Positions 10,766 to 63,965 of a stretch of DNA of 64,000 bases are shown in pieces. Where the stretch lies: the NCBI GenBank assembly GCA_017626035.1, contig JAGAJR010000016.1, forward strand, positions 41,272 through 105,271. The letters are read 5' to 3'. The notes under the pieces were generated by a model. It had not been told where the DNA came from. It did not search any database and saw nothing but the letters and a program-made list of their open reading frames with translations. How positions within the stretch are numbered: the first letter of the stretch is position 1; the number at the start of each line of letters is the position of its first letter. Both the position numbers and the translations under genes were made by a program. This stretch comes from Alphaproteobacteria bacterium. GTDB lineage: Bacteria; Pseudomonadota; Alphaproteobacteria; RF32; CAG-239.

Positions 10766-10842
<77 letters not shown>

Positions 10843-27000: not shown

Positions 27001-27008
27001 TTGCCGAA

Positions 27009-29691: not shown

Positions 29692-29712
29692 CGTTTTATC
29701 CTTTTCTTAAAG

Positions 29713-31993: not shown

Positions 31994-32043
31994 ACATATT
32001 GAAAATTAAATAATCAAGCACGACACTTCAGTTATTACCAAGG

Positions 32044-33789: not shown

Positions 33790-34112
33790 CAAAATCAAAA
33801 CCCCTCTAAACCCTTGATAATTCAATATGCGACTCTTGGCAAGAAGATATAAAATTATGCACAAAATCTGTGGATTCTTTTTTTGATATGATTCTGATTT
33901 ATTAGAGAAATATTTACCATTAGGGGTGTAAGAATAAGGATGTTTATACTTCTTTAATAACTGTGAATTTTTTGTTACAGGGAAAAATATTATTGTAAAT
34001 CAGCTTGTTATCCGTTTTTTAGGAAGAAGAATATTGCTGGTAAAAAAGTTAAAAATTAGCTATCCTAAAAGAGTATAAGAAGTTTTGCTAAATTAATTTA
34101 AGGAGAAAGATT
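33790..34112. promoter_or_regulatory. Divergent intergenic control region between the pil operon (-) and the virB2 genes (+)
   Basis: About 320 bp of AT-rich non-coding DNA between the two outward-facing operons. The promoters must lie here, but no specific boxes could be assigned confidently. Confidence 0.35.
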
Positions 34113-34457
34113 ATGCAATTTTTAAAGAAAAACATTTGGACACTGAGCTGCATGGTACTCATTTTGGCGATGGCTTTTGTAGGCGATGCATCCGCTGCCG
34201 CAGACGGTAACACTTTGATGGATACTGCCAAAACCAAAGCTAAAAGCGTATTTACCTCAGTCAAAACCATCATCTTCATCGTCGGTGGTTTCGGTTTGGT
34301 AGGTTTGGCTTGGGCTGCTATTTTCGGTAAAGTAAACTGGAAATGGTTTGCATCTTTGGCCGTTGGTTTGGCAATCTTGGCTGCTGCTGGTTCTATCGTT
34401 GAATACGCAACAGGTTCAAGAGATGCTGGTCTTGAAACCACATTCGGTGATATCTAG
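34113..34457 (+). CDS. virB2: VirB2/TrbC-family T4SS pilin, paralog 1
   Basis: 114 aa. Signal peptide ending GDASA, then two hydrophobic helices IIFIVGGFGLVGLAWAAIFGKVNWKWFASLAVGLAILAAAGSIVEY. AAGGAG SD. Lies upstream of virB3-virB4. Confidence 0.8.
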   Translation: MQFLKKNIWTLSCMVLILAMAFVGDASAAADGNTLMDTAKTKAKSVFTSVKTIIFIVGGFGLVGLAWAAIFGKVNWKWFASLAVGLAILAAAGSIVEYATGSRDAGLETTFGDI

Positions 34458-34501
34458 TCTTAGACCGGATATTAGAGCATAGTTTGACAAGGGAGGGAAA
34501 A

Positions 34502-34972
34502 ATGGAAAATTTAATTAAAAATAGACCACAATCTCTCCCTTTTGCTCATCTGCTGAAAAAAGCGGTAAGTATTATAGAAGAAAAGGATGTTGAGATGTTG
34601 TGCGTAAAATTAAAGAACTTCCTGATAATGGCTGTTGTGATGTTCGTGGTTTCTTCAGTTTTATTTGCAACAGATTCATTTGCAGCTGAAAACACGGGGT
34701 TGTTTTCTGATTTGATTGCCAAAGGAGGCAGTATTTTCTCCGGTATGCGTGAAATTATTTACGCTGTTGCCGGTTTTGGTGTGGCTGCCGTTGCAATTGG
34801 TGGTTTCTTTGGAAACCTGAACTGGAAATGGCTCGCAGCGATTGCAATCGGTTTGTTTGTAATTGCTACAACCGGTGCAATCATTAATTATATGGTTGGA
34901 GATAAAACCATAACGGATGATATGATAAGAGATACGTTGATCACTGGAAATCAAGATAATTTGAATAAATAA
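34502..34972 (+). CDS. virB2: VirB2/TrbC-family T4SS pilin, paralog 2
   Basis: The core REIIYAVAGFGVAAVAIGGFFGNLNWKWLAAIAIGLFVIATTGAIINY aligns residue for residue with paralog 1. The start is uncertain: ATG 34502 after GGGAGG, or ATG 34595 giving a classical signal peptide. The track start is 34484. Confidence 0.75.
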   Translation: MENLIKNRPQSLPFAHLLKKAVSIIEEKDVEMLCVKLKNFLIMAVVMFVVSSVLFATDSFAAENTGLFSDLIAKGGSIFSGMREIIYAVAGFGVAAVAIGGFFGNLNWKWLAAIAIGLFVIATTGAIINYMVGDKTITDDMIRDTLITGNQDNLNK

Positions 34973-35010
34973 TGATGTTTTGAATGTCTGGAACTGATTG
35001 GGAGGGTGCT

Positions 35011-43684: not shown

Positions 43685-45574
43685 ATGAAACGTTTATACT
43701 ATTACATATCAGCAATATCTGTTCTGGTTTTGGGAATTTCAGGTTCTGTTTCCGCAATGATTAAATTTGACGTAAGTGCAACTTCGGGTAAAGTAACGGA
43801 AACGGTTTCCGAATGGGGCGGCAAAGCCAAAAAAATGATGGATGAAAATGCTACCCTGCAAACTTTGATTACCTATGGCAAAGCGGCGAAAGAAGCGGCA
43901 GCCAATTTGCAGGAAATGAAAAATGATGCCATGCAAGCGGTTGGGGATGTAACTTCCGCCGCTAATCAGATGAAAGAAGATGTTAATTCGACGGTAGGAG
44001 ATGTGGCCGGAGAAGTGAACGGTGTCGCCGGTACGGCAACGGGTGCTGTCGGAAACGTAACGTCCAAAACGCAAAGTGCCCAAGAGATTTTAAAACTTCA
44101 GAATGAGAAAAAAGAACTGGAAGATACGATTGAACAGGAAATTTTTGCTCAGGTAACGGAAATTACCGGAAAAATAAATGCTTTACAGCAAAACAATGCC
44201 GCACTCAGACAAAAAATACAAGAAGAACCTGACAAGAAATCGGAATATGAGGCAAGCATTGTTGCCAATGAAAGCAAAATAAAGGAACTTAATGAGGAAT
44301 CCCAGCAGATTTCGACAAATGTAAAATCACAGTATAGTTCACAATTAAGTGCTTTGGATGAACAAATCTCCGCGGCAAAATCAAAAGCCTCGGAAGAAGC
44401 AATGGGAGCGTTAAGTGACAATGCCGATAAATTAAAAGGTTTATTAGGCGGAGATGCTGCGGCCGAAGAATTAAATCAAACCGTAGACAATAACTTTATT
44501 CCGGCAGATACTCCGATTACGGTAGAAAGCCGCAAAAAAGTAATGGATTATCGAAAAAAAGTACAGGCTTTGGATACGATAAAAGCGGTTAATGCCGCCC
44601 TGTTCATCAAAAAAGATTTGGATGCCAGTAATGAACAGGGAGATAAAACCAAAGAAAAAGCTGATACCAGCGAAGGATTTTCGACCAAACCGGCAATGGG
44701 TATTCAGCTTAAAATTGACGAAATAAAGGCTTTGCTAAAATACACTAAGCTGTTGATGGCTGATATGAAAATGAAAACAGCGACAGATTTGGCCGGAATG
44801 AGTGAGGTTATGAAACTTAGAAATCCGGATAAGGATATCACATCATTTAATCTGGATGACTATAAATATAGTAAGTCTGATTGTAACAAGAAAGAAGGCG
44901 AAGAGAAAAAATCCCTGTTGGATAAAGCCAAAGATAAATACAAACAGGCTAAAAATATAATGAGTGAGGCTAAGGAGTACGGGGCTTTGGCTAAAGAAGC
45001 CATGAGCGTCGGCAAAGATGTGGCGTCTTCTTTCTCATCAGGTAAACGTTCCGGCGGCAGTTCCGGAGGAAGTTCTTCCGATGCAGGATATTCAGGAAAT
45101 ACGGAATATTATAACGCTGCTCCGTCTTACTCTTATGCCGGAGAAGAATATGAACAGCCGGACGAAGCTCCTGCCGAAGTAACTTACATAACCAGATATG
45201 TTGATGATATTCAATATGATGAGAACGGAAATCCGATTGAGGAAGAAGAAACGGAAGAAAATGAGGTTGCCGAAAAAACGGAAGGCAGTTATGAGAAAGA
45301 AGCCAGAACCCGGGCAGGTGCCGGTGTGGATGCAGATGCCATGACGCAGGATGAATATGAAAAAGCTGCACGGGCAGCCGGAAGTGCCGGTGTTGCTTCG
45401 GATTTCAGAATTGATAAGAAAACATCTGCTGTTGAAAAGAAGGATAGCGGGGAAGAGGGGGAATTATCTGCAAAACCACAGGTAAAAGCTTCTGCAGTTC
45501 CGCAAACAAGCGGCAGAAAGAGTTTTGGAACGGCACAAGTTGCGGTTTCTGCTAAAGCGGGAGAAAAGAAATGA
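43685..45574 (+). CDS. Secreted coiled-coil hypothetical protein (T4SS operon)
   Basis: 629 aa with a signal peptide. It shares the cassette GVD.DAM.QDEYEKAARAAGS.GV..DF..DKK and an SGRK(S/A)F motif with the ORF at 40515. Confidence 0.6.
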   Translation: MKRLYYYISAISVLVLGISGSVSAMIKFDVSATSGKVTETVSEWGGKAKKMMDENATLQTLITYGKAAKEAAANLQEMKNDAMQAVGDVTSAANQMKEDVNSTVGDVAGEVNGVAGTATGAVGNVTSKTQSAQEILKLQNEKKELEDTIEQEIFAQVTEITGKINALQQNNAALRQKIQEEPDKKSEYEASIVANESKIKELNEESQQISTNVKSQYSSQLSALDEQISAAKSKASEEAMGALSDNADKLKGLLGGDAAAEELNQTVDNNFIPADTPITVESRKKVMDYRKKVQALDTIKAVNAALFIKKDLDASNEQGDKTKEKADTSEGFSTKPAMGIQLKIDEIKALLKYTKLLMADMKMKTATDLAGMSEVMKLRNPDKDITSFNLDDYKYSKSDCNKKEGEEKKSLLDKAKDKYKQAKNIMSEAKEYGALAKEAMSVGKDVASSFSSGKRSGGSSGGSSSDAGYSGNTEYYNAAPSYSYAGEEYEQPDEAPAEVTYITRYVDDIQYDENGNPIEEEETEENEVAEKTEGSYEKEARTRAGAGVDADAMTQDEYEKAARAAGSAGVASDFRIDKKTSAVEKKDSGEEGELSAKPQVKASAVPQTSGRKSFGTAQVAVSAKAGEKK

Positions 45575-48500
45575 TGACGAGATTATATAAGATATTTTTT
45601 CTCTTAATTGTTTTTCTCTGTTTGAGCTTTTTTCTAAAACAAAATGCTTGGGCGTTTGGTTTGCTTCCGCCGGGACCTGTTTCTCCGACGGTAGACGGTC
45701 CGACGGATGTTCAATTTTCCTTAAAAGGGGTTGGTTCGGCAGCAACTAATATTCAAGCTCAGGCCAGTACCTATATGCAGGAACAGACAAAACTCATTAA
45801 AGCGGCAAAAAAGAAATATATGGATAAATTTACCGGCTTTATGGGCGGTTTGTTCAAGAAAAAGGAAAAGAAGGCTATTGCCGGAACTAAAGAAATTAAA
45901 GAAACCAAAATTGCCGATATTTATGATCCTGAATCTGTCTACAAGGCAATGTATAAACTGTTTTTGGCTTATCCGAGCAAAAAACAGGATTTAATGACCT
46001 GTTATCGTAATAAATCCGTGGAATTTTATCAGGATACCGTTATTGAGGTTTATACCTCCGTTCGACAGTTAGAAACACAGTTAAAAGAACTTGAGGTGGA
46101 AATAAACGGCCTCTCTGAAAAGTTGGTTGCCGGCAAAGGCGGAGATGGGGCTGAAAGCAATGAAGATGATATCGGAGTTTGGAAAAACTATTACACCGCT
46201 TTTGAAACGATGGACGAGTTGCTCCAGATTACGGAAGAATTGATGGCGATGAAAGCCCAATATGAAGCGGCAAGAACTGTTTCTCAAAGCATTGAACCAG
46301 CGGCTAAAGGAGATAAACAAAGTTCTCTGCTTGACGGTAAAATTGCCGATAATGAAATCGTGCTGGCTGAAAATAAAGCCGTTGTTCGTACCTTTGGCGA
46401 GAAAATTGTTTTAGCTCAGGCTCTGTCTAAAAATACATCGGCGGTTAAACTTCAAACCGCGGCATCTAAGACGCTGAATAGCAGCCGAAAAAGCTTTGGA
46501 ACAGCAAAGCAAAAAGCATCGGCTTCAATTCAGACTGTACAGCAAAAAATTCAGGCAACGAAGAGTGTTGCTCTTCAACCGGCAAACAAGGTTTTAAATA
46601 AAGCAGAAACAGCCGTTTTATCAAAAACGGAAAGCAATTTGACAAAAACAGCAGAATTAAAAACCAAACCGCTTTTGAAACAGTCCGAACAGCCCAAAAA
46701 ATTAGCAACACTGAAAGCTGATGGTGTCGGTTTAGCAACAACATCAGCGTTAGAACAAGCTACTGTTGTTGAACCTTTAAAAGCAGAAAAATTTTCAGCC
46801 GATAAACTTTCTGCTGATGCTGCTCCCATAACAAAATTGTCTGCAGCTTCAAAGAATGTTTCTGCAACGGTTGGCAGCGTAAGTAATATTGCAAAACAGA
46901 CTTCAATACAAATGCCAAGCAGTAAAACAAGTGCAAAAAAGGCAACTGCAGTAAAAACTTCCGGAACATTGAAAACAACATCCTCTCCTGCACTGGGATT
47001 GATTATGAGGACTCCGGCTAGCCGGGCAGAGCAGGAAGCTGATGCTTTGGCACGGCAGAGGATAAATTTTGAAGCGGAAAATAATTTGACCCGGACTGTT
47101 TCTTTAAATACGTCTTCTGCAGAGGAAGAAGAGGATGACGAAGATTATGAATATGATCCGGCAAATAACGGTTTTATGGATTTTGTCGACGCTCCGCCTT
47201 CTAATATGAAGTCCCCGTTTGCCGGCAATGAAGAAAAAATGGCCGAACTTGAAAAATTAAATCCGGTGTATGAAAAAGCTCAGGAAGCAATGGAAGTCCA
47301 TAACCTGATGAAATCTCTTCCGTCTTATCGGGAAATGTTTGAACAATATGAACAGATGAAAAAACTGCATGAACAGTCTTTGAAAGTTTTGAAAGATGCA
47401 GATCAGTGCAGTATCCAATTTTTGGGACGTTATTATAATAATCCGGAAAAAGTCTGGACAGGCAAAACAATTTCAGACGACCAGATTAACGAATATGACT
47501 TAAGAAGCGGAATTTCCGGCTGGGCAATTAAAAGTTTTGAAGTTGCAAAGGCCGAACAAACCTCTCCGGTTTCCATGGATGATTTTGGCGAAACGGAAGT
47601 TGACGTTGATATTGACAATTCGGATTTGGCTTCTGTCGAGAAAAACAAAAGTAAATATGAAAATCAGAGTACCGGAGGACTGGCAAATCCGAGTAAGGAA
47701 GAAGAACTGGAAAAAGTCAATCGCGAAACATCAATGATGAACTGGAAAATCGGTGCAGAGGCCGCTTCTCTGATTGTTCAAGATCAATATGGCGGCAAGC
47801 CGCAATGGGGAACGCCGAGCAAAAAGTTTCCGATTTGGAATGACCAAAAAACATTTTATACCCAATATATTGACGGCAAATATAATAATATTAAAGAATA
47901 TCTGAAAAATGTCGATGTGAATGATGTTGCCATTGAAATTGCTTTTAAGCTGAATGATTTGGTGCAAGATGCCAAAGAACGGGCCTATAATACACAAGAG
48001 TTGAATAAGCTGTCTTCCTTGATAACCCAAAAGAGGAACGGAGAAGAGACTGTTTCTGCTTCAACATTGCAAACGCTTTTGGACAGTAAGGAAAAGTCTT
48101 TGGAGGAAGCCAAACAGTCAAAAGAAACCCGCTTGGCCGGTCTGTTGAATCAAAAAGAGGCGATTAACGCCAAAATTGACAAAGCTTCTCAGTATATCAA
48201 AACATATAACCAGAGAATTAACCAGCTTTCTCAAGAAGCGATGGAGGCTCAAAACGAGCAGGAAACACTCAATGATTTGGTCAAGAGAATGGAAGAAGAG
48301 GAAGCCGAGGACGATAAGGAGCTCTATTATACGGTTAAAGAGGAAGAAGAGTTTGATGTAGAAATCACTCCGGAAACCGAAAAAGAAACGGTTGAATATG
48401 AAACGGAGTTAAAAGTAAATACTCCAAAACTTCCGGCGGCGGCTTCCGTTGCCAAGGCAGCATCGGCTGTTACGGCTCAGAAGGCGGCAAAAGTAACGAC

Positions 48501-51138: not shown

Positions 51139-51151
51139 GAAGAGAGCGTGA

Positions 51152-51910: not shown

Positions 51911-52014
51911 CTTGTTGATAAGTTGGGGATTTTATTGGGATGATGTTAGACTTTTAATTTAAAAGAGTATAACTTCAACATATCTATAGATAGAATTATT
52001 GAAAGGGACCTTTA

Positions 52015-52203
52015 ATGTATAAAAGATTTGTGATGGTTTTCCTCATCCTGCTGTTGACGGCCTGCGGTATTTTCGGTTCGTATTATGAAGCAGAACCTGT
52101 CGGCGTCGGTAAAGGTGTGGATGAGTTGAAGCTGTCTCCTTGTGCTTGTATGCAGCTTGATTTGCCGAAAGATTTGCCGGATTGGTTTGTGGAAACAATC
52201 TAA
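52015..52203 (+). CDS. Small lipoprotein, VirB7-like by position
   Basis: 62 aa. Lipobox LLLTACG. It lies between the virB8 copies and just upstream of virB9, where VirB7-type lipoproteins occur. There is no sequence-level proof. Confidence 0.5.
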   Translation: MYKRFVMVFLILLLTACGIFGSYYEAEPVGVGKGVDELKLSPCACMQLDLPKDLPDWFVETI

Positions 52204-52223
52204 GATAAGGGTTTTTATTCATA

Positions 52224-52958
52224 ATGGCAAATGCTCTCGGCGGAAATAATACGGAACAAAGACTGATTGGAAGCAGGGCTCAAGCGGCTCCGAGAAATAC
52301 ATCCCGTGCCAATGCGGATGTGTTTGTTGCCAATGTGGCCGAAAAAAGATATTTGTGGACGGCTCGTGCTTTCGCAATCATTACGGCCATCAGCTTATGC
52401 TGTAATGTTATTTTAATTTTGGCGATTATGCAGGTTTTGCCTTTATATCGTATTGAACCGTTTTTGCTGACATTCCAAAACAGGCAGGAACAAGTGTATA
52501 ATATCCAGCCGGTCAAAGGAGATTTGGCTGACGAAAAAGCAATTACCGAAGTGTTTGTCCGAGAATATGTTTTGCTCCGCAGCTCGTTCGATTTGGATAT
52601 TCCGGAAATGGAAGCCCGTTGGATGCCGGGCGGGCCGGTTCAGGAAATGTCTTCCGGTGCGGTTTATTCCGAATTCCTTGAAAAAACGGCTAAAAGGGCA
52701 CTGACGATTATTCGAACAAAAAGTATGATAAGAAATGTTCGTATTTTGACCGTAAATGAACTGGGAAAAGGTTTGTGGCAGGTGGAATACGAAACGCAGG
52801 ATATGTATCCGGATTCGTCAACGCCGGAAATCAATTATTGGACGGCATCTCTGCGGGTGGCTTATCGTCGGAAGAGCGTAAAGTATGGCGAAAGATTAAA
52901 AAATCCGGTCGGTTTTACGGTGGTACGTTACTCACTGACATATAATAAAGTAAAATAA
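52224..52958 (+). CDS. virB8: VirB8-family T4SS protein, paralog 2
   Basis: TM helix (AFAIITAISLCCNVILILAIM), FVREYVLLRS, and a C-terminal NPVGFTVVRY motif. It is a clear paralog of 51152-51910. Confidence 0.85.
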   Translation: MANALGGNNTEQRLIGSRAQAAPRNTSRANADVFVANVAEKRYLWTARAFAIITAISLCCNVILILAIMQVLPLYRIEPFLLTFQNRQEQVYNIQPVKGDLADEKAITEVFVREYVLLRSSFDLDIPEMEARWMPGGPVQEMSSGAVYSEFLEKTAKRALTIIRTKSMIRNVRILTVNELGKGLWQVEYETQDMYPDSSTPEINYWTASLRVAYRRKSVKYGERLKNPVGFTVVRYSLTYNKVK

Positions 52959-52972
52959 AGGTGTATTTTGTA

Positions 52973-54664
52973 ATGGTTTTAAGAGCGGTTAAGATATTTT
53001 TTGTTGGGGCGGTAATGCTGTTGGTTGCCGGAAAAAATGCTTATTCTCAGGCAACGATGGGAAGTCTTGATCAAAATGCCGATCAAAGCCAGGGACAGTA
53101 TATGCCGATGAATATGGGATACGCCGGTTTTAACTCTTTGGGTATGGTGCAGAGTGCGTGGCTGGATCCGCTTCAGAACTTGGGTGAAGGACAGTCTAAG
53201 CCTGCTTATTCCAGATATTATTGGTCTCCGGATTTGGTATTGCCGATACGTCTCCGCGAAGGAATGATGACATTGATTAACTTTCCGGAATGGGAAATGG
53301 TTGAGGATATGTTCATCGGTGATAATTCATCTTTTGACGGTCAGATTACCGGTCCTAATACGATCTTGCTCTATCCTCGGAAAGGGGCGAATGTCGGTGT
53401 GGATACAAACATTATCATCTTTGGTCGTTCCGGAAACCGCTATGTGTTCTATGTTAAGAGTGAAGGTGTAAATACCGAAAGGTTGACAAACTCCATTATT
53501 GATATTGATGTCATTGACGGACCCTCGGGGTCGCGGGGTGCCGGAGTAAGCGGAGCCCGCAGCAATGGCGGAAGATCAGGGGTTAATGCCAGTTCTCTCA
53601 AAGGCGGCAGCGGGCTTTCTGTAGATTCTACTTTTACCAAACGCTTTGGTAAAAATGACTGGATTAAAGAAATTCCTTTGGATCCGACAAAGTTTAGATT
53701 TGACATTGAAGTTTATGTTCCAAACCCGGATGATGTGGTAATTGCACCGGAAAGAGTTTGGAGAGATGATATCTTTACTTATATTGATTTGGGCGAAAAG
53801 GCTCTGAATATGACACAGCGTCCGATTGTAACCCTTATTGTCGAAAGAATTGAGGTGCCGGTGGGCTTTAGAACCAAGGGGCCGAATAACCGTTTGATTA
53901 TTGTTGAAGGTATCGGCGATATGGTTATGAGAAACGGAAAGCGTATTATCTGCTTGAAAATGCGTCGTTCTGATGACTATGGAATGGAAATGGCAACTTA
54001 TGCAACTGATTTTGAAGACAGTTCGTGGGATGTTGCTCCGAAATTGCCGGGCGGACGTCAGAGTAACAGCCAGGGCGGAGCCGGATATAACGGCGGTAAC
54101 GGTGGTTTCGGCGGTGCCGGTTCTAATGACGGATTTGATGAAGTCGGCGGTGATTCTCCGGGAGATTACGGAAATTATCCGGGAGCTCCGGGACAATATG
54201 ACATCAAAGTCGGCAATAGTGAAATTATTGCTCGGAACAATGCTCAAGGCGGTGATGTCAGTGTCGGTTACCAAGGTCAGGGACAACCGTCCGGAAACTT
54301 TGATTACTCAAAGATGCAGCGGATTAGCAATAATCATAATTATAACAGCGGTGCTTTGGGCGGTAACGGTCAGTTCAGCTATGGTTCCGGTTTCTCTGAC
54401 GGAGGTTCGAATATTTCAATCGAGCTTGGAACGGATGCTGATGTCGGAAATCTTGAAAAATTATGGAGCGGCCTGACTAAGAAATATCCGGATATTCTCA
54501 ATCGGTATGAGCCGTTCTTCTCTGTAGATGCTCCGGCGGACGGACAGGGAAAAGAGTTGTTCCACCTGCGTGTCGGACCGGTTAATTCTCTTGATGACGG
54601 AGATTCTGTCTGCAGCAAACTGGGTCGAAACGGTGTATTTTGTAGTGTAGTCAGGACGCAATGA
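52973..54664 (+). CDS. virB9: VirB9/CagX-family T4SS protein fused to a C-terminal SPOR domain
   Basis: The VirB9 N-domain contains PIRLREGMMTLINFPEWEMVEDMFIGD...TNIIIFGRSGNRYVFYV. The VirB9 C-domain contains IAPERVWRDDIFTYIDLG...IVTLIVE...GKRIICL. A G/N-rich linker follows. The last ~84 aa (ISIELGTDADVGNLEKLW....FHLRVGPVNSLDDGDSVCSKLGRNGVFCSVV) are SPOR-like. The ATG at 52973 is preferred over the GTG at 52961. Confidence 0.8.
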   Translation: MVLRAVKIFFVGAVMLLVAGKNAYSQATMGSLDQNADQSQGQYMPMNMGYAGFNSLGMVQSAWLDPLQNLGEGQSKPAYSRYYWSPDLVLPIRLREGMMTLINFPEWEMVEDMFIGDNSSFDGQITGPNTILLYPRKGANVGVDTNIIIFGRSGNRYVFYVKSEGVNTERLTNSIIDIDVIDGPSGSRGAGVSGARSNGGRSGVNASSLKGGSGLSVDSTFTKRFGKNDWIKEIPLDPTKFRFDIEVYVPNPDDVVIAPERVWRDDIFTYIDLGEKALNMTQRPIVTLIVERIEVPVGFRTKGPNNRLIIVEGIGDMVMRNGKRIICLKMRRSDDYGMEMATYATDFEDSSWDVAPKLPGGRQSNSQGGAGYNGGNGGFGGAGSNDGFDEVGGDSPGDYGNYPGAPGQYDIKVGNSEIIARNNAQGGDVSVGYQGQGQPSGNFDYSKMQRISNNHNYNSGALGGNGQFSYGSGFSDGGSNISIELGTDADVGNLEKLWSGLTKKYPDILNRYEPFFSVDAPADGQGKELFHLRVGPVNSLDDGDSVCSKLGRNGVFCSVVRTQ

Positions 54665-57600
54665 GCAAAGAAGTATTAACACGTTCCGAAACTTATGTAA
54701 GAAAAACCAACCGCATTATTCTTGCGGTTGGTATTACTTCGTTTGTAATCTTTGTTTTTGGTGTTATGCTTCTTATTCAAAGCAACGAAGTTGTTGATGA
54801 CTATCAGGAACCTGTTTTTACGGATAATGATGATGCCTTAAACATCGGAGAAGTCAAACCTCTGGAGAATAATCTGGAGTTTGGAAATGTTGACGACGGC
54901 GAGATTCCGATTACAACGACGCCAAATCCCGTTAATATGGGGCAAGTGGTTTTGGGAACTGATGCTCGTAATGTATTGACAATCGGAACAAACGGCAAGG
55001 CCTCCATAACGATTAGTTCCGTACAGTTGGCGGAACCTCCGTTTGACGGTTTCAGTTTTCATGATGATTGCAGCGGAAAAACACTGAGAGGTAATGAACA
55101 TTGCGATATTACCATGTCGTGGGTGCCGATTGTCGCCGGAAATGTTCAAAACAATTTTATTGTTTCGTGGCATGAATCAAACTTAAGCGTCAGCAATGCA
55201 AAATCGGAAAAAATTCCGGTTGACGGAAATGCCATCCGTAAAGAAGATTGTAACTTTTGTGAAACGGCTTTGCCGAAAGACGGCGAGGTTGAACAGAAAA
55301 GTGCCTCAAAATTACGGGCAATCATCGGACCGAACGGAGAAATCATCGGCTATGCGGATGAAGACGGCTATGTTCGCGATAAGGACGGCAACATTATCGG
55401 CCGTGTTAATGCCAACGGAATGGCCGTTGATGAAGATGGCAACATTATCGGCGTGGCCGATAACCGCAAACTTGTTTATGATGAATTCGGCAATGTGATT
55501 GGCTATGTTAATCCTGACGGAACGGTTGTAGACAAAGACGGAAACGTTATCGGAAGAATGTTGCCGGACGGGACGGTTGTTGATGCTAACGGCAATGTTA
55601 TCGGTAAAGCTGTCGATGCCGGTTATGTGTATGACAAGGACGGCAATATTATCGGAAGAGTTCTTCCGGACGGAACGGTTGTCGATATGGACGGTAATGT
55701 TATCGGGCGTCTGAATGAAAACGGCGAGGTTGTTGATGCCAACGGCAATGTGATTGGTTATGTCAGCAAGCCGGGACGGGTGGCTGTCGATGAAAACGGT
55801 AATGTTTTGGGTGTGGTTATGCCGAACGGAGCGGTTGTGGATGCCAACGGCAACCTTGTCGGCTATGTTGATGAAAACGGTAATGTCGTTAAAGATAAAA
55901 CTTTGGGAAGCAATCGGCGTTTTGCTTATGATAAAGACGGTAATATTATCGGGTACATTGATGAAAACGGCAATGTAATTGATGCCAACGGCAATATCAT
56001 CGGCAGAATGCTGGAAGACGGCACCGTTGTTGATTTGGACGGCAATGTAATTGGCGAGGCCGGAGATGTTACGGCCGGTCCGATGCGTCGTTTGGCTTAT
56101 GATAAAGACGGCAATGTCATCGGTTATATTGATGAAAACGGTAATGTTGTTGATTTTAACGGCAATATTATCGGAAAAATGCTGGAAGACGGTACTTTAG
56201 TCGATATGGACGGTAATGTTATCGGCAAGGCCGGGGAATATGCAAATCTGGCTTTGGATAAATACGGCAATGTGATTGGTTATGTAAAGCCGGACGGAAC
56301 AATTGTCGATAAAGACGGCAACGTCATCGGTAAGGTCTCCGATATGACGGTAGGGCCGCAACGTCGTCTGGCTTATGATAAAGACGGCAATGTCATCGGT
56401 TATATTGATGAAAACGGTAATGTTGTTGATTTTAACGGCAATATTATCGGAAAAATGTTGGAAGACGGTACTTTAGTGGATGCTGACGGCAATGTCATCG
56501 GTCGTGCCGGAGAATACGTCAATCTGGCTTTGGACAAGAACGGAAAAGTTATTGGTTATGTCAGTGCCGACGGAAAAGTATATGATCTTAACGGTAATGA
56601 AATAGGCTATATTGATGAAAGCGGAAATATTGTCAGCAATGAACGCTATAAAATCGGCGGATTGGTTGAAACTCAGATGATTCCGGTCATGGCTTCCGGA
56701 GAAATTTTGGGAACAGTCAATAATAACGGTACCGTTGAAAATGAAAGACAGCAGATTGTCGGACGAATTCTTTCCAATGGGTTGGTCAAAGATCCTTCCG
56801 GTTCCAAAGTCATTGCCCGGTTGGTGCGAGGCGGCCTGGTAGTCGGTTACGGATGTAAAAACATCGGGTATCTGGAACGGGATGGAAAAATCCGCAAATC
56901 TAATCAGGATACCGGATACAAAGTCGGAAGCGACGGAATTGTAACCGACAGTTCGGGAACTTACATCGGTGAGGTCGTTTCTCCGGGAAAAGTTTTTGAT
57001 AATTCCTGCACACTTTTAGGTGAAGTCGGAACAGACGGAATTGTTCGCGGCGGCTCCAATAATTATGTCGGCTGTGTCAATCCGGACGGAACGGTTTTGG
57101 ATGAAAAGGGAGACATTATCGGTGGTACGGTTAAAAGCGGGATAGCCCTTTCTTATGACGGAGAATATCTGGGCAAAGTTTCACCTGACGGTTTGGTAAT
57201 ATCTCCGGCGTTGCTTCCGGTCGGCTGTGTCGGCACATACGGTGATGTTTTCAGCCGTAACGGCGGATATATCGGAAAAATTCTCGAAAACAAATATGCT
57301 TTTGACTTGGACGGAAACTTTCTGAATATGGTTGGCGAAGACGGCAAGGTTTATGTTGCGGGACAGGCTCCGGCCAGATTATTGGCAAATAATCTTATTG
57401 TGGATGATAATAACACGATTATCGGTATGGCTATGGGCGAAAAAACGGCGATAGTCAGTCCGGACGGCAAAGTTCTCGGACGTTTGTTCCCGGATGGTTA
57501 TGTTTATAGTGATAAAGGTGTGGCCGTAGGAAAAATCAACGGAGACGGCATGAGCTTTTATAACAAACAAATCGGGCGTCCGATGCCGAAAGGCGAAGTG

Positions 57601-58521: not shown

Positions 58522-58523
58522 GT

Positions 58524-61500
58524 TTGAAACGGAATAATTTTTATAGTCTTTTCGGTAAAATTGCCCAAACCTTTACGGTTGCGGCAGTTTGCTTTTTTAT
58601 GTCTGTTTCTCATGCCGAAGCTCAGGAAATTACGGCGATAGATTTTAACGGCGATCTGCTGGGAAAAGTTATTCCGGACGGTAAAGTCGTCAGCTTGGAT
58701 AACCAACTGATTGGTAATGTTACCGCCGACAGCTTGATTGTAAACTTTGACGGAGAATTGATAGGTGGTGTTATTCCTCAGGGAATTGCCATCGGAAATG
58801 ACAATAAACTGCTGGGTAAGGTTAATAACGACGGTTCCGTGCGTATGTCATCCGGAAAAATCATCGGAAAAGTTTTGCCGACAGGTTTGGTAATTGACGA
58901 TTATTTTGACGTTATCGGTGCGGTTTTGTTTCCGGGATTGGTTTATTCCGACGGAGGACGGACAGTCGGCCGTTTGACTGGTGATGGTTTATACACTAAT
59001 TTGCAGGGGCAGGAGATTGGTTTTGTTTCTCCTGACGGTTACGCTTATCGCCGGGTTGGAACGGATTATGTGCTCGACGGCCGTTTGATTTCATCCAAAA
59101 TGGTGGTTTCCGAAAGCGGAGAATTTATCGGCAGTGTTACCCCGGGAGGGAATATTACTGATTTTGACGCCGTAACAATCGGTTTTATTAAGGCAAACGG
59201 GTTTGCTTACAATGAAAACAATACGATTATCGGCCGTATTGTTCGTTCGGGATACGCTTTTGATAATTTTGGCCGCTATATCGGCTTTGTAACCTACAAC
59301 GGAGAAGTCCTTGATAAAGACAAATTAGTCGGACATTTACGTTCTGACGGTAAGATTGCCGGAGAAAAAGGCGAGATTATCGGGTTTAGTGTTGACATTT
59401 CGGCAACGGCGACGGATTCTACCGGAAAATTCTTAGGCCGTGTTATGCCGAACGGAAAAATTTATCGAGCCAGAGAAGAAGCCGGAGTATTAGGGGCTAA
59501 AGGTATTGTTTATAATAAAGACGGAAATGCCGTCGGGCAGATTGTCCGGTCAGGTCCGGTTTTTGACTATAAAGGATCTTTGGTTGCTCATGCTTTGAAA
59601 AACGGTAAGGTTATTTTGCTGGAAGGAACGCCGACGGGATATGTTATCGGCAACAAGGCTTATGACAACAACGGCCGTTTAACCGGTGCGACGCTTGATG
59701 AACTTTTGGTGGTTAACGGAAATAATAAAGCATTGGGAATTGTCGGTATTAACGCTTCTGTTTTTGACGGAGACGATCGCCGTATTGTTTCCCCGTTCGG
59801 ATATGTTTTTAATACAGACGGAGGGATTAACGGTTCCGCTTTGCCTTTGGGGGCAATCTATAACATCAGCGGTATTCCTGTTTCGGAAATTTCCCCGAAC
59901 GGAGAATTGTATAATAAAGGAAGCCTGGCTCTTGGCAAGTTGACGCAAAGCGGCGTTAATATTGATGAGAGAAACCGGATACTCGGTAAAAATGTTTGTC
60001 CGCTGTTTGTTGTAGATGAGAGCGGAAGTTCCTTGGGAAATTTATCGGAAGGAAATTTGGTTTTAAATAAGGGATTAAAAATAACGGCAAAGGTTTTGCC
60101 TGATAATTCCGTTGTTCCTGCCTCTGAAGAGGATTCTGTTGATTTAAGCCCGAAAACGGGAAATGCCTATCAAAATAATATCGTGATAAGTTATACTGGA
60201 AACCTTTTAGGATATACCAATGATGACGGCAGTGTTCGTGATTTTAACGGCAACCGTTTGGGTAAAGTTTCCGGTCGAGGGATGGTTGTTGATAATAACG
60301 GTTCGGTTATCGGCGGACTGATAGGATATGATACGGTTATTGACGATGATTGCACGATGATTGGCGTAATCGACCCGAAAGGCGAAATCAAAAACTTCCG
60401 CAATGTCAGTATGGGACGGATTTTGTTAAACGGTCAGGCTGTTTCTGAAAGCGGAAATTATATCGGTTATGCGGTAAATGCCCAATCCGTAGTCGATTAC
60501 AGCGGAAATGTTCTCGGCGTCGCTTCTGCCGGAGGCCGGGTTTTGAACTATGCGGATGAACAATTAGGTTGTCTGAACAAGAAAAAACTTTTGAAAAATG
60601 CCGATAATACAATCATCGGCGGCAGTGTTGAATATTATCCGGTAATGAATTTTAACGGAACGGTTATCGGCCGCAGTATTTTGGACGGTTCGGTCGTTAA
60701 TGATAAAAGTATGGTTATCGGCTATATGCAGCCGGATGGTAACGTTAATTCCAAAACCGGTGTTCCTGTCGGTGGTTTGTTCAAATATAAAGTCGCTTTT
60801 GACGACAATAACAAATTTATCGGCCGCGTTTTGGAAAACGGCAAAGTTGTCAATGCCGGAAATGAGGAAATCGGACAAGTTGATTTTGTCGGTTACGTTT
60901 CCAATAAAGACGGAGCCAAAATAGGGTATGCTTTGTATGATTTTTATATCTATGACAACAACTTCTCCGTTATGGGATATATTAACAAAGACGGCACAGT
61001 TCTCTCCCTGTTGGGGCAAAAGCTCGGAACCTTGGATCGTGGTTTTCTGATTGACAGGGGCGGACAGGTCATCGGCCGGGGCAATCGTGATTTTTATATC
61101 AGGGATGAAAGCAATTTGGTTTTGGGTGAATTAAGTTTGGACGGCGAGTTGGTTAATGTGTCCGGCGAAGTTCTCGGAACAATCAATAAAGAGGGAAATA
61201 TTTTGGATGCCGAAGGCAAAACCATTGCCACGGCCAAACCGTTGCAGTTTTATAATCTGACGCTTGATCGCCAGAAAGTATATGATGAAAACGGCAATTT
61301 AATCGGCTATGTCAATAAAGACGGCAGCGTTGTTGATGAAAACGGCAAACTCATCGGTTTGGTTAATGATGACGGTATCGTTATTTCCGCCAACGGCAAC
61401 ATTATCGGCGGCACATCTCTGGATTGGTATGAAAAAGCCCCTCAAACTGCTCCGAAAGACAATAAACTGCCGGAAGTCGGAGTTAATGAATATCAGGAAA

Positions 61501-62951
61501 TCAAGGAAAAATACCGTAAGTCTTTAGGAATAGCTTTGACGCCGGATGGAGAATATCTCGGAGAAATTATGGAAGACGGCAATGTGGTCGATAAAAGCGG
61601 CAACGTTTTAGGGCATAAAATGCCGGATGGTTTGGTTATTGATAACGACGGAACATTAATTGGTATTGAAGAAGCCAGTAAGCCGAATACGGACGGAATG
61701 TTTATTCCGGCGGGAACTTTCGGCAGTGGTGGAGCTTACGGCGTAGGAGCCGGTTCGGGAACTAATTTGGGACCGGGCGGCGGTTTCGGACCGGGAGAAC
61801 GTTACGATCCGCAGCGTGCGGCTGCTTTGGATGCTGCTCAAAATCAACGTCGTCAGGGAATGGCTGTCGGCAAAATAAGTACCAATGTCCGTAAAGAAGC
61901 TTTTGACGGTTATCAGAAAAACTGGGATGAACAAGGCGTTTCCAAGGCTATTTCTTCATGGCGGGTTAAGTTAGACGAGATGATTTTTGCGGATAAGCCT
62001 ATTCCGGCCGTATTATCCCGTTCTATCGACAGCAACAATCCTACCCCGATTACCGCTTTTGTGGAGAGAAATATTTATGCGGAAGAGGGGCGAAACATCA
62101 TTATTCCGGCGGGAAGCCGTTTGGTCGGAACTTTGGGCGGCTTGACCGGAACCACGGAAACTACTTCTCAGTCTGCAAAAGTTCAAATCTCCTGGGAACG
62201 CTTGATTCGTCCGGATGGCGTATTGTTTACTTTTGCTGGTATTACGGCCGACGCACAGGGACGAGGCGGTGCTCTGGGTTATTTGGATCAACAGTTGTTT
62301 AAGAAATATACACTGCCGATTATGACAACGGCGTTAACCAGCTATACCTCTTACTTAATGGCTGAAGATGACAAGAGCAGCGGCGAGACGGAAAGCTCCA
62401 GACAGCAGGCGGCTAATGATGCTCGTCAAAACTTCTTAAATGAGATGAACCAAGTGTTTGAACAGATTTTGGCGGATAAAACCAACATTAAGCCTTTGAC
62501 TTATGTTCCTGCCGGAACCAGAATTATTGTCTTCCCGAATGTGGATTTGTGGATGAGAACCGAAGAACGCGATGCTGAGGCAAGCACCGGACAGGGTAGT
62601 AAGAAAGACGTCTTCATTGATGATGAAAAAGTTTCAAATGACAGAAAACTGCAAGAAAACAAACGTGCGGTTAATATCAGTGCAAGCTCTGCTTCTCAGG
62701 CCGGAAATGTTCTGTATGAGGCTGATGATGCCGGTGTTGAGGCTGTGGATGCTCCGCCTAAATTGATTGATGACAGCTCGGTTAAAAATAAAAAGAAGGC
62801 CAAAGGACAGCCTACAAATCCGGGTTTGGTAAGCGGCAGCACGCCGCCTCCGCCGCCGACGTATTCGACAACGCCGGGAGCCAATAATGCTTCCTCGGGA
62901 AGTTCCAACAGTAACCAGAACAGCGACAGCAGTGTCCCGCAATTATTCTGA
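58524..62951 (+). CDS. virB10: Giant VirB10/TrbI-family protein (1475 aa) with ~1000-aa DG-x-x-IG repeat region (CagY-like architecture)
   Basis: N-terminal signal/anchor, degenerate DG..IG repeats (~58630-61670) and a Gly-rich linker. The canonical VirB10 core lies at ~61940-62555 (IPAVLSRSIDSNNPTPITAFVERNIY...IIIPAGSRLVG...ISWERLIRPDG...GALGYLDQQ...VPAGTRIIVFPNVDL). A P/S/N-rich tail follows. TTG start after GGAGGA. Confidence 0.85.
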   Translation: MKRNNFYSLFGKIAQTFTVAAVCFFMSVSHAEAQEITAIDFNGDLLGKVIPDGKVVSLDNQLIGNVTADSLIVNFDGELIGGVIPQGIAIGNDNKLLGKVNNDGSVRMSSGKIIGKVLPTGLVIDDYFDVIGAVLFPGLVYSDGGRTVGRLTGDGLYTNLQGQEIGFVSPDGYAYRRVGTDYVLDGRLISSKMVVSESGEFIGSVTPGGNITDFDAVTIGFIKANGFAYNENNTIIGRIVRSGYAFDNFGRYIGFVTYNGEVLDKDKLVGHLRSDGKIAGEKGEIIGFSVDISATATDSTGKFLGRVMPNGKIYRAREEAGVLGAKGIVYNKDGNAVGQIVRSGPVFDYKGSLVAHALKNGKVILLEGTPTGYVIGNKAYDNNGRLTGATLDELLVVNGNNKALGIVGINASVFDGDDRRIVSPFGYVFNTDGGINGSALPLGAIYNISGIPVSEISPNGELYNKGSLALGKLTQSGVNIDERNRILGKNVCPLFVVDESGSSLGNLSEGNLVLNKGLKITAKVLPDNSVVPASEEDSVDLSPKTGNAYQNNIVISYTGNLLGYTNDDGSVRDFNGNRLGKVSGRGMVVDNNGSVIGGLIGYDTVIDDDCTMIGVIDPKGEIKNFRNVSMGRILLNGQAVSESGNYIGYAVNAQSVVDYSGNVLGVASAGGRVLNYADEQLGCLNKKKLLKNADNTIIGGSVEYYPVMNFNGTVIGRSILDGSVVNDKSMVIGYMQPDGNVNSKTGVPVGGLFKYKVAFDDNNKFIGRVLENGKVVNAGNEEIGQVDFVGYVSNKDGAKIGYALYDFYIYDNNFSVMGYINKDGTVLSLLGQKLGTLDRGFLIDRGGQVIGRGNRDFYIRDESNLVLGELSLDGELVNVSGEVLGTINKEGNILDAEGKTIATAKPLQFYNLTLDRQKVYDENGNLIGYVNKDGSVVDENGKLIGLVNDDGIVISANGNIIGGTSLDWYEKAPQTAPKDNKLPEVGVNEYQEIKEKYRKSLGIALTPDGEYLGEIMEDGNVVDKSGNVLGHKMPDGLVIDNDGTLIGIEEASKPNTDGMFIPAGTFGSGGAYGVGAGSGTNLGPGGGFGPGERYDPQRAAALDAAQNQRRQGMAVGKISTNVRKEAFDGYQKNWDEQGVSKAISSWRVKLDEMIFADKPIPAVLSRSIDSNNPTPITAFVERNIYAEEGRNIIIPAGSRLVGTLGGLTGTTETTSQSAKVQISWERLIRPDGVLFTFAGITADAQGRGGALGYLDQQLFKKYTLPIMTTALTSYTSYLMAEDDKSSGETESSRQQAANDARQNFLNEMNQVFEQILADKTNIKPLTYVPAGTRIIVFPNVDLWMRTEERDAEASTGQGSKKDVFIDDEKVSNDRKLQENKRAVNISASSASQAGNVLYEADDAGVEAVDAPPKLIDDSSVKNKKKAKGQPTNPGLVSGSTPPPPPTYSTTPGANNASSGSSNSNQNSDSSVPQLF

Positions 62952-62965
62952 CAGGAGAATGGGAA

Positions 62966-63934
62966 ATGAGTTTTAAAGTATTGGAATCAGTGTTAAGACC
63001 GTTATCTTATTGGTATAATCAGGATAATATCGAGGAAGTTGCCATCAACCGTTCCGGGCAGATTTGGCTGCGTCTTCGCGGTAAAAGGGCTTATCCGTGG
63101 GTTATGTATAAAGATGAGAAATTAACTAAAGAATATTTGGTGGATTTGCTTTATATTATTGCCAATACGTATGAACTGCCGTTTGATCCGGTTCAGGGAA
63201 CTCCGGTTGTCTATGCGACCATTCCGGGCGAACATCGTTTTTCGGCGATTGCCGGCCGTAACGTTATGTATGACCAAGACGATCTGACCGGCGGTGTGGC
63301 CATAGCCATCCGTCTCCATAGTGAAGATGTTGCCTTTGGTTTACAGGACTATGGTTTGAGCCAGGGTTCCGGATTGCACAAGATTAACCCGTTAAAAGAC
63401 ATTAAAGATCCGGAAGATCCTTATGAACGGCTGTTGTTGAGTTTGAAACGCGGTGATCATATTTTGGTGAGTGGTGCGACTTCAACCGGTAAAACAACCT
63501 TCTTAAACAACTTGCTGAAGATTTTGGACATCAATAAACGTATTGTAACCATTGAAGATACTCGAGAATTATTGGTTCCGCATCCGAACCGCGTCCATTT
63601 GGTCTTGTCCCGTACCGAACAAACCAATACGATGGATTACAGCAAAATCATCGACTTGGTGGTGCGTTTTACACCTGATGCCATTATCGGCGGTGAGATT
63701 TCCACCAGTAACGCCGGAGCCTTGTGGGAGCTGATGGGATCCGGACACGATAACTGTTTGGCAACTATCCATGCCGAGAGCTCCGAAGCGGCTTATAAAG
63801 CGTTTACCGACCGTATTTTGCATACTTATCCGACAATTGACAGGGTAAAAACAATTGAAGAAATGCACAAAAAACTGCGGGTTGTTCAAATTAATCGTGA
63901 TGGCAACTTGCGTGCTATTACCGAAGTAACTTAA
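62966..63934 (+). CDS. virB11: VirB11-family T4SS ATPase
   Basis: 322 aa. Walker A GATSTGKTT, IVTIEDTREL, Walker B-region PDAIIGGEIS and His box GHDNCLATIHAES. Confidence 0.92.
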   Translation: MSFKVLESVLRPLSYWYNQDNIEEVAINRSGQIWLRLRGKRAYPWVMYKDEKLTKEYLVDLLYIIANTYELPFDPVQGTPVVYATIPGEHRFSAIAGRNVMYDQDDLTGGVAIAIRLHSEDVAFGLQDYGLSQGSGLHKINPLKDIKDPEDPYERLLLSLKRGDHILVSGATSTGKTTFLNNLLKILDINKRIVTIEDTRELLVPHPNRVHLVLSRTEQTNTMDYSKIIDLVVRFTPDAIIGGEISTSNAGALWELMGSGHDNCLATIHAESSEAAYKAFTDRILHTYPTIDRVKTIEEMHKKLRVVQINRDGNLRAITEVT

Positions 63935-63937: not shown

Positions 63938-63965
63938 AAAAGCCCCTTGAAACAGGGGCTTTTTA
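63938..63965 (+). terminator. Rho-independent terminator after virB11
   Basis: AGCCCCT (63941-63947) - loop - AGGGGCT (63954-63960), followed by TTTTT. Confidence 0.8.

Follow-up and report, generated by a model that had tools for sequence, protein, structure and literature searches.

An expanded VirB-type secretion locus of uncultured gut Alphaproteobacteria and its likely role in cell contact

What is a 30-kb VirB-type secretion locus for, when VirB6, VirD4 and a relaxase are not found at it and giant secreted and repeat proteins are? The question is raised by a 64,000-nt stretch of DNA from an uncultured alphaproteobacterium of the RF32/CAG-239 lineage (hereafter the window, whose positions are used throughout), in which a type IV secretion system (T4SS) locus occupies positions 34113-63934, entirely on the forward strand. 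Our answer, to which we give a probability of roughly 0.6, is that the locus encodes an intact, chromosomally fixed and vertically inherited expanded system of the VirB type (mating-pair formation class T, MPF-T, or type IVA), belonging to an uncultured animal-gut clade of Alphaproteobacteria related to Candidatus Scatocola, and that it likely serves adhesion to another cell, protein delivery into it, or both, upon contact, and not plasmid conjugation. Literature searches, with subscription-only papers outside their scope, returned nothing on T4SSs in RF32, CAG-239, Rs-D84 or Scatocola bacteria, nor on beta-flower domains in secretion systems. As no description of the system was found, the original prediction that the locus may represent an undescribed subtype seems reasonable.

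Composition of the locus

Each open reading frame (ORF) of the locus was scanned against Pfam and NCBIfam profiles, and structure matches refer to the PDB. The 10 kb downstream of the window were read from the matching scaffold_341 (127.6 kb) of the ENA metagenome assembly ERZ28654807, in which the window's last 200 bases are identical and window position 1 falls at about position 41012. Statements on presence or absence refer to ~76 kb around the locus.

The ORF list and the profile searches give the order VirB2 (three copies), VirB3, VirB4, four secreted ORFs (X1 to X4), VirB8, a VirB7-like lipoprotein, a second VirB8, VirB9, a 1286-aa repeat protein, VirB10 and VirB11 (Table 1), which matches the predicted order almost exactly, and all 16 ORFs are intact. 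The tight or overlapping junctions foreseen from virB3 onward measure -11 to +26 nt, except for 104 nt before virB7. They run to -11 nt for virB3/virB4 and then -4, 9, -4, 13, 20, 2, -4, 2 and 14 nt, with 26 nt after virB4 (77 nt to the likely ATG of X1); a larger gap of 161 nt precedes virB3. A terminator-like hairpin with a T-run was found after virB11, where the prediction had placed the end of the operon. A further hairpin in the gap before virB3 is overlapped by a promoter-like site (37586-37613) and may act as an attenuator or terminator that sets the ratio, and thereby the stoichiometry, of pilin to machine transcripts. The G+C content ranges from 0.38 to 0.47 across the window and makes no step at the locus.

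VirB4, both VirB8 proteins, VirB9, the VirB10 barrel and VirB11 match their own families, and all but VirB9 also match solved structures. Since these core matches all fall well below the NCBI curated cutoffs, the system is divergent; the same holds for VirB4 in particular, whose TIGR00929 match lies below the trusted cutoff. The predicted core motifs are nevertheless seen in the translations, including Walker boxes in VirB4 (GPTGQGKT and IDET) and VirB11 and NPLGFTV and NPVGFTV in the two VirB8 proteins, and the VirB10 barrel was matched. Membership in the VirB type (MPF-T/type IVA) is thus supported by eight components, with neither VirB6 nor VirD4 at the locus. The estimate that well over half of the coding capacity is non-canonical was upheld.

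The nearest cultured relative that we found, a T4SS on megaplasmid pMVF16-3 of Microvirga sp. VF16 (VirB4 39.5% identical), helps to identify the smaller parts. The first VirB2, with a signal peptide and two membrane helices, is 38% identical to the Microvirga TrbC/VirB2 and 62-74% to its counterparts within the clade. The second is 32% identical to the first (E 2e-17), and the true start of its ORF is probably internal; family and paralog matches bear out the three virB2 copies of the prediction, the third being the giant fusion described below. The VirB3-like protein matches Pfam VirB3 weakly (E 0.071, 72 of 84 profile positions), and it is 29% identical (E 1e-9) to the annotated Microvirga VirB3 and 68-72% to clade counterparts. 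The VirB7-like lipoprotein shares 42% identity (E 4.5e-9) and an SPCAC motif with a 58-aa Microvirga lipoprotein at the same position, and 73-87% identity within the clade. VirB9 is 33% identical to the likewise long Microvirga VirB9 (550 aa), and VirB11 is 41% identical to its Microvirga homolog. The two VirB8 paralogs, a and b, are 33% identical to each other.

By Pfam, no VirB1, VirB6, VirD4 or relaxase was detected in the ~76 kb. Moreover, tblastn with the Microvirga VirD4, MobA/MobL relaxase and three-helix protein encoded after VirB4 gave no match in the window or in any fetched locus, and among ORFs of at least 150 aa in the 64-kb window none had the four or more hydrophobic segments of a polytopic VirB6/TrbL. 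The absences noted in the original prediction therefore stand for the window, by Pfam throughout, by tblastn also for VirD4 and the relaxase, and by the helix scan also for VirB6. They extend to the 10 kb beyond position 64000; the genes there are convergent and unrelated.

Might the locus be a decaying relic without current function? The absence of VirB6, VirD4 and VirB1 from it would be in keeping with decay. Against this stand the intact ORFs, the coupled junctions, the intact catalytic motifs, core proteins that are visibly constrained and an architecture kept in hundreds of assemblies, so that we regard such a relic as scarcely credible.

Table 1. Features of the secretion locus and, in the last five rows, of the DNA upstream of it (window positions)
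Feature	Position	Strand	Evidence or remark
VirB2/TrbC pilin paralog 1, 114 aa	34113-34457	+	Pfam TrbC 3.2e-10, above cutoff
VirB2-like pilin paralog 2, 162-aa ORF	34484-34972	+	Pfam TrbC 7e-5, below cutoff
Giant VirB2 fusion, 856 aa	34984-37554	+	BLASTP to paralog 1
Hairpin, 18-bp stem, then T-run	37592-37630	+	terminator-like scan; in the 161-nt gap that follows the giant pilin gene
VirB3-like, 99 aa, two membrane helices	37716-38015	+	overlaps virB4 by 11 nt
VirB4 ATPase, 810 aa	38005-40437	+	Pfam CagE_TrbE_VirB 3e-10; TIGR00929 3.8e-108; PDB TrwK 1.3e-42
X1, 791 aa from ATG 40515 (808-aa ORF)	40515-42890	+	secreted, no family
X2, 262 aa, helical, hypervariable	42887-43675	+	signal peptide only, no family
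X3, 629 aa, coiled coil and low complexity	43685-45574	+	secreted, no family
X4, 1855 aa	45571-51138	+	secreted, no family
VirB8 paralog a, 252 aa	51152-51910	+	Pfam VirB8 1.8e-16
VirB7-like lipoprotein, 62 aa	52015-52203	+	LTAC lipobox
VirB8 paralog b, 244 aa	52224-52958	+	Pfam VirB8 9e-25; PDB Bartonella VirB8 9e-9
VirB9, 567 aa, long Gly-rich C-terminal extension	52961-54664	+	Pfam CagX 1.1e-10
Inner-membrane-anchored beta-flower array protein, 1286 aa	54661-58521	+	Pfam Bflower_2 2.9e-87, 13 stretches
VirB10, 1475 aa	58524-62951	+	Pfam Bflower_2 5.8e-63 (8 stretches); TrbI 9.2e-34
VirB11 ATPase, 322 aa	62966-63934	+	TIGR02788 6e-41; PDB Brucella VirB11 1e-17
Intrinsic-terminator-like hairpin and T-run, operon end	63944-63958	+	terminator-like scan
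R64/PilS-type type IVb pilus operon	22036-33864	-	Pfam
Fic-domain protein	20891-21982	+	
Orphan T2SSE-family ATPase, 320 aa	18276-19238	-	
Ser/Thr kinase, PP2C and VWA trio	14101-16983	-	
tRNA-Arg(CCT)	10766-10842	-	

Conservation and ancestry of the locus

That the locus belongs to the core genome is indicated by its relatives. VirB4 homologs fall into more than 120 clusters at 82-92% identity in metagenome-assembled genomes (MAGs) of gut Alphaproteobacteria, on contigs of up to 582 kb, and VirB4 relatives at large amount to hundreds of clusters; named clusters carry the labels MAG Alphaproteobacteria, Pseudomonadota or Proteobacteria, and the source names of the assemblies point to chicken, rumen and other gut samples. 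A VirB10 homolog is present in Candidatus Scatocola faecigallinarum, and a single VirB10 sequence is found unchanged on 262 contigs, of which the largest measures 2.03 Mb. The survey of relatives that had been suggested along with the original prediction found the same architecture across many related gut MAGs.

We compared the window with four further clade loci, L017, L019, L020 and L021 (VirB4 83-87% identical). All four comprise a divergent type IVb pilus operon, two small VirB2 genes with none or one giant fusion, VirB3, VirB4, four to six extra ORFs and the series VirB8-VirB7-VirB8, followed by VirB9 in L019 and L021, where the fetched locus reaches that far. Relative to the window, the core proteins retain 53-87% identity, while X1 to X3 fall to 19-43% or become undetectable (X1 over this whole range; X2 23-28% or undetectable; X3 26-33%) and X4 falls to 28-35%. 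A conserved core combined with divergent extra ORFs is the pattern expected for exposed proteins under diversifying pressure.

Upstream, the neighbourhood consists of housekeeping genes (ribosomal protein S1, cytidylate kinase, a DnaJ-like protein and others), followed by a type IVb pilus operon of the R64/PilS type. The operon encodes three Bundlin/PilS pilins, T2SSF, T2SSE, PAP_PilO, a secretin, a TcpQ-like protein and a 606-aa protein; it is divergent from the T4SS, with a spacer of 248 bp, and it keeps this adjacency in every clade locus examined (the window, L017, L019, L020 and L021). We regard it as a conserved partner and not as part of the T4SS proper.

Outside the clade, the nearest VirB4 among the representatives listed is 52% identical and the next at most 42%; one of the nearest clusters is labelled Sphingorhabdus sp. 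In these distant relatives (VirB4 41-52%), T4SS genes stand among housekeeping genes with no extra ORFs, and comprise either just B3-B4 or the series B3-B4-B7-B8-B9 with one VirB8. A case of the former is L011 (VirB4 52%), where virB3-virB4 lies alone among housekeeping genes, with VirB11 (61% identical) encoded at a distance of 3 kb and an ankyrin-repeat protein nearby (296-1288 and 6129-7094); dispersed genes of this kind bring to mind Alphaproteobacteria that are obligately host-associated.

Such scattering also recalls the rvh system of Rickettsiales, a chromosomal alphaproteobacterial VirB system with paralog expansion. In R. typhi the order is B8-B7-B8-B9-B10-B11 (PMC4676284), as in the window, where a repeat protein intervenes between B9 and B10. 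The window has one VirB4 and one VirB9, both of which are duplicated in rvh, no VirB6 paralogs and no rvhD4 after VirB11, and the rvh hallmark of three to five enlarged VirB6 paralogs after VirB4 is not reproduced by X1 to X4, which have no membrane helices beyond the signal peptide. The window VirB8 matched Bartonella VirB8 structures and, at E<=1, none of the Rickettsia RvhB8 structures in the PDB. Since the outgroups L013, L014 and Microvirga each carry a single VirB8, nearer to paralog b, VirB8 a is a clade-specific, independent duplication. We therefore rejected membership in the rvh type, given the single VirB8 of the outgroups, the absence of VirB6 paralogs and the lack of sequence affinity to RvhB8.

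A closer model is offered by Microvirga, whose locus reads MobA/MobL relaxase, VirB2-B3-B4, three small proteins, a lipoprotein, B8-B9-B10-B11, two small ORFs and VirD4. It shares with the window the series B2-B3-B4-[secreted helical proteins]-lipoprotein-B8-B9-B10-B11, and the VirB10 barrels are 31% identical. The relaxase, VirD4 and the three-helix membrane protein after VirB4 are Microvirga's own, and it has one VirB2, one VirB8 and a 590-aa VirB10 without a Pfam beta-flower match. Conversely, only the window has the pilin fusion, a duplicate VirB8, giant extra ORFs and a VirB10 that bears repeats and is apparently split. Because the Microvirga system is collinear and homologous, the gut locus is best understood as a chromosomal derivative of a conjugative MPF-T sublineage.

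Could it still be the mating-pair-formation module of a conjugative element, such as an integrative and conjugative element or a chromid, with the relaxase, origin of transfer (oriT) and coupling protein elsewhere on the element? The collinear relative with its MobA/MobL relaxase and VirD4 would speak for this, as would the R64-type pilus operon adjoining the T4SS, since thin pili of the R64 type assist conjugation in liquid, and a strain-specific integrase island near tRNA-Arg in another strain. On the other hand, no relaxase or type IV coupling protein lies within 34 kb upstream or 10 kb downstream, housekeeping genes stand on the flanks, the position beside the pilus operon is kept in five divergent genomes (VirB4 83-87%, accessory proteins 19-43%), and the T4SS genes of the outgroups are interleaved with housekeeping genes. 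Housekeeping flanks and the same architecture across many gut MAGs argue against an ordinary mobile conjugation module, and we consider a conjugative element improbable. An ordinary conjugative plasmid module was likewise rejected for this locus, though its ancestry is of that type. The IncI1 plasmid R64 itself resembles the window in combining a PilS/PilO-type type IVb pilus operon (Pfam PilS, PAP_PilO, secretin, TcpQ) with a T4SS. The R64 transfer system is a plasmid-borne, conjugative type IVB (Dot/Icm-like) system, unlike the VirB-type, chromosomal T4SS of the window.

Beta-flower arrays, pilins and secreted proteins

Two of the unusual proteins of the locus carry long arrays of beta-flower repeats. 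The beta-flower fold came to light only in 2023, through AlphaFold models, and no function is known for it (PMC10584680). The 1286-aa protein has a short cytoplasmic tail, a membrane helix at residues 19-37, an immunoglobulin-like domain and beta-flower repeats over ~1080 aa, with an additional match to Choice-of-anchor D (9e-6) below the cutoff. VirB10 consists of a putative cleavable signal peptide, ~1000 aa of beta-flower repeats, a Gly/Pro linker, a TrbI/VirB10 barrel (residues 1154-1343; ComB10, PDB 2bhv, 5e-20; TrwE also matched in the PDB) and a Pro/Ser-rich tail. In a test with PF21784 and PF21785 (Pfam clan CL0395), Bflower family matches reached 1e-35 and 3e-21 in the two array proteins. 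All 120 of the VirB10 homologs listed combine beta-flower and TrbI domains.

The 1286-aa protein is paralogous to residues 34-1053 of VirB10 (27-30% identity, E 9e-70), and the two seem to have divided the work of one protein. VirB10 and four homologs read alongside it share a short N-terminal hydrophobic stretch with a conserved AxA site just before "EITAIDF"; this site indicates a cleavable signal peptide and not the usual VirB10 membrane anchor. In the Microvirga VirB10, a hydrophobic helix occupies the usual anchor position (residues 13-31), and the layout expected of a VirB10 N-terminus, a cytoplasmic tail followed by a single helix, is found in the 1286-aa protein. VirB10 would thus be split into an anchored array and a barrel-bearing array.

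The arrays also vary in length between strains. An in-frame repeat unit of 92 aa (residues 471-562; window 56071-56346) is present or absent, giving proteins of 1286 or 1194 aa, and in strains without it (L002; L003, 1972-5556) the flanking DNA is 97-98% identical. Likewise, the VirB10 homologs P0292 (1711 aa) and P0337 (1570 aa) are 141 aa apart, and a repeated module is visible in the longer one. Similar behaviour is known from the Cag system of H. pylori, where the repeat number of CagY changes in frame between close strains. Cag, too, is a VirB-type machine with many non-canonical proteins and a VirB10 homolog enlarged by ~1000 aa of repeats. The comparison does not go beyond this. The repeats of the window are beta-flower domains and not homologous to those of CagY; its VirB4, VirB8 and VirB11 do not match Cag proteins any better than those of other systems; and its locus belongs to the core genome, whereas Cag lies on a pathogenicity island. 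No Cag-specific subunit (e.g., CagM, Cag3, CagA or CagL) was found in the Pfam and NCBIfam scans of every ORF, the Pfam "CagX" family being the generic VirB9 family. The description of the locus as "Cag-like" is thus apt as an analogy, for an elaborated system with a repeat-expanded, strain-variable VirB10, and does not hold as a relationship, given that no Cag-specific family was matched and that the closest cultured relative is a conjugative MPF-T system.

An extracellular superstructure, which the original prediction had proposed, is not supported, since the arrays lie N-terminal to the VirB10 barrel and behind the membrane anchor. Because of the standard VirB10 topology, they are expected to be periplasmic and not extracellular. 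In place of the repeat arrays, the fusion pilin and the hypervariable X1 to X4 are the candidates for exposure at the cell surface. The other half of that prediction, a contact or effector-type apparatus in place of a conjugation system, fares better in view of the housekeeping flanks, the clade-wide conservation and the absence of a relaxase and VirD4 from the locus.

The barrel itself brings up another alternative, a ComB-like DNA-uptake system, or a DNA-release system, that needs no coupling protein. It matches H. pylori ComB10 best, not only in the PDB but also in NCBIfam (T4SS_ComB10, 7e-33), and VirD4 is not at the locus. The lead of ComB10 over the VirB10 models is small, however (114 versus 105 bits), and nothing else at the locus suggests DNA handling. 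Furthermore, ComB works without VirB11, which is present here, and has a VirB6 homolog, which the window locus has not. We judge such a system very improbable.

Returning to the contact apparatus that we favour, one candidate for display is the third VirB2. This protein is composed of a signal peptide, a coiled coil of ~330 aa, a VirB2 two-helix core and a Gly/Asn/Thr-rich C-terminal extension of ~440 aa. The core (residues 355-411; membrane helices 360-378 and 392-410) is 40% identical to the first VirB2 over 57 aa (BLASTP, E 5e-13). Counterparts in relatives measure 497, 530 and 1430 aa; L019 has none. In solved conjugative pili both pilin termini face outward, which could allow the fusion pilin to carry hundreds of exposed residues on a pilus.

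X1 to X4 each have a signal peptide as their only membrane-directed segment and are rich in coiled coil and low complexity; none matched a Pfam or NCBIfam family in profile scans of each ORF. Lying at the VirB5/VirB6 position, they are candidates for pilus-tip or stalk proteins. X1 comprises a signal peptide, an AQxPxxD motif, a coiled coil, a variable region and a duplicated Cys-containing C-terminal domain. Its Pfam scan at E<=10 gave a weak DUF4141 match (0.007) and nothing else. The profile of its N-terminus aligned with that of the first Microvirga protein after VirB4, AQxPxxD motif included, at a borderline hhalign probability of 54% (E 1.3e-4), and this Microvirga protein is itself a weak match to Pfam VirB5 (E 0.17). 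A PDB profile search of X1 for VirB5 likeness returned coiled-coil noise only. X1 is a possible VirB5 analog. Its C-terminal Cys domain (~41970-42890; F.G.F......Y/ICxF.AKD....(6-7 residues)....C) occurs twice in the window protein and once in four aligned relatives. X1 (41517-41627) and X3 (45323-45436) have in common a 38-aa motif, DAM.QDEYEKAARAAGS.GV..DF..DKK, at 76% identity (E 6.5e-12).

The largest of the four, X4, has 41 homolog clusters at 30-99% identity, all of them in this clade and all without a Pfam domain. Conserved blocks (residues ~28-245, ~540-815 and ~1260-1855) are separated by variable linkers, and Cys and aromatic residues are invariant among the homologs. A model of its C-terminal 616 aa (pLDDT, the predicted local distance difference test, 71) gave no PDB fold match at E<1, and for the N-terminal 830 aa (pLDDT 48) fold matches are meaningless. 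In allele P0410 (1686 aa, 98% identical), ~169 residues of an Ala/Lys/Ser/Thr-rich linker are gone (window ~46480-46990); the disordered linkers vary by strain and the three structured blocks are kept.

These exposed candidates make one alternative worth particular attention, namely that the locus forms an adhesion organelle consisting of a pilus only, that the genome has no coupling protein, and that nothing is translocated, variable VirB2- and VirB5-like surface proteins being displayed instead. Its model is the Trw system of Bartonella, which is described as forming variable pili out of its duplicated VirB2 and VirB5 homologs while translocating no protein (PMC4676284). Like Trw, the window has several VirB2 genes, one of its three being a fusion able to display large domains, and multiplied secreted proteins at the VirB5 position, four to six hypervariable ORFs within the clade; no VirD4 was found in ~76 kb, an adhesion role is plausible, and the partnership with an adhesive type IVb pilus is conserved. 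Yet VirB11 and the full set of ATPases are kept, the VirB5 homology of the extra ORFs is unproven, and Trw retains VirB6 copies where the window locus has none. Moreover, Trw is a close copy of the R388 conjugation system, whereas the window VirB4 matches R388 TrwK at E 1e-42 and its accessory proteins are giants unrelated to those of Trw. A pilus-only organelle is thus possible and, in our estimation, rather unlikely.

Following the reading of an apparatus for contact and perhaps delivery, the parts can be arranged as follows. Comparison of the loci shows that the system goes back to a conjugative sublineage, collinear with it, in which the order is B2-B3-B4-[secreted helical proteins]-B7-B8-B9-B10-B11-D4, as still found in Microvirga, and that relaxase, coupling protein and small polytopic protein have disappeared from the locus. 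It also shows what has been gained: two extra VirB2 paralogs (one of them the giant fusion), a second VirB8, four to six fast-evolving secreted proteins and the ~1000-aa beta-flower arrays. VirB7, VirB9 and the VirB10 barrel would form the outer-membrane core, and VirB3, VirB4, the VirB8 pair and VirB11 the inner-membrane motor. The inner-membrane anchor of VirB10 would have moved to its 1286-aa paralog, so that the two homologous arrays, of lengths varying between strains, may link the inner membrane to the core; a SPOR-like end of VirB9, below the cutoff, would fit contact with peptidoglycan. The VirB2 paralogs presumably build the pilus, whose surface the fusion pilin may decorate, with the hypervariable secreted proteins at the tip or the base. 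The constant pairing with a pilus of the R64/PilS type suggests a sequence of attachment and then T4SS contact: the divergent type IVb pilus would bring the cells together, and the T4SS would make contact afterwards. The target may be a host cell, a protist or a bacterium. Whether anything is translocated depends on a coupling protein, as a VirB system without VirD4 cannot recruit canonical substrates.

Several points weigh against this arrangement. To our knowledge VirB6 is essential in every T4SS studied, and it must here be encoded elsewhere or replaced. Neither a substrate, an effector nor a coupling protein was identified in the ~76 kb at the locus. The VirB5 likeness of the extra ORFs is a matter of position, a short motif and the hhalign probability given above, and the profile and fold searches of X1 and X4 against the PDB brought no usable match. 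The cleavage of the VirB10 signal peptide is read from sequence alone, and the SPOR-like end of VirB9 is weak (E 0.0027, below the Pfam cutoff). Finally, vertical inheritance appears from synteny and identity levels and not from a species tree.

A bolder and more speculative proposal, which we think rather unlikely, supposes that the clade genomes are without VirB6 and VirD4 altogether. The system would then represent a new architectural class of type IVA, with a two-protein beta-flower lattice (the split VirB10) that bridges inner and outer membrane and is tuned in length by repeat recombination, rapidly diversifying giant secreted proteins and a pilin displaying several hundred residues on the pilus surface that replace stalk and tip, and a dedicated type IVb pilus as its partner in a contact organelle. 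If this were true, abundant uncultured gut Alphaproteobacteria would use the organelle to attach to, or feed on, host epithelium, a protist or a bacterium.

A 30-kb contact apparatus in the core genome, paired with a pilus of type IVb, gives a concrete hint, open to testing, at the lifestyle of these widespread uncultured bacteria. The locus may be viewed as a natural experiment on which VirB parts (VirB6, the VirB10 anchor, VirB5) are dispensable or replaceable. It also provides the first cellular context that we found for the beta-flower fold, a VirB10 homolog whose repeats vary in number between strains, the second such case and independent of the first, CagY, and a VirB2 pilin with very large extensions. 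Its value lies in being a well-defined and widespread target for cryo-electron tomography, complex structure prediction and metatranscriptomics, the roles proposed here having been deduced from the sequences. It should be of clear interest to specialists in T4SSs and in the gut microbiome.

Neighbouring genes

Between the housekeeping genes and the pilus operon lies a trio of a Ser/Thr kinase, a PP2C phosphatase and a VWA protein (Table 1). An orphan T2SSE-family ATPase, 32% identical to VirB11 over 138 aa, and a Fic-domain protein are encoded nearby. These ATPase, Fic and kinase/PP2C/VWA genes are possible regulators or effectors.

Beyond virB11, convergent genes (L001, 11024-20969) encode five proteins: a Cys-rich secreted one of 725 aa, which is missing from L006, a bitopic one of 248 aa, a lipoprotein of 423 aa, one of 186 aa and one of 988 aa that contains 13 lysines in a row. 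They are followed by a regulator with a double helix-turn-helix and a 1285-aa M23 peptidase. The five convergent genes had no usable Pfam or NCBIfam match and were left out of the parts of the system; they could be cargo or belong to another envelope system.

Farther upstream, near the tRNA-Arg gene, another strain has a strain-specific island. On its contig L010 (11829-20942), just after a DUF1349 gene, an integrase, an ankyrin-repeat protein and a 1264-aa autotransporter replace the genes of the window.

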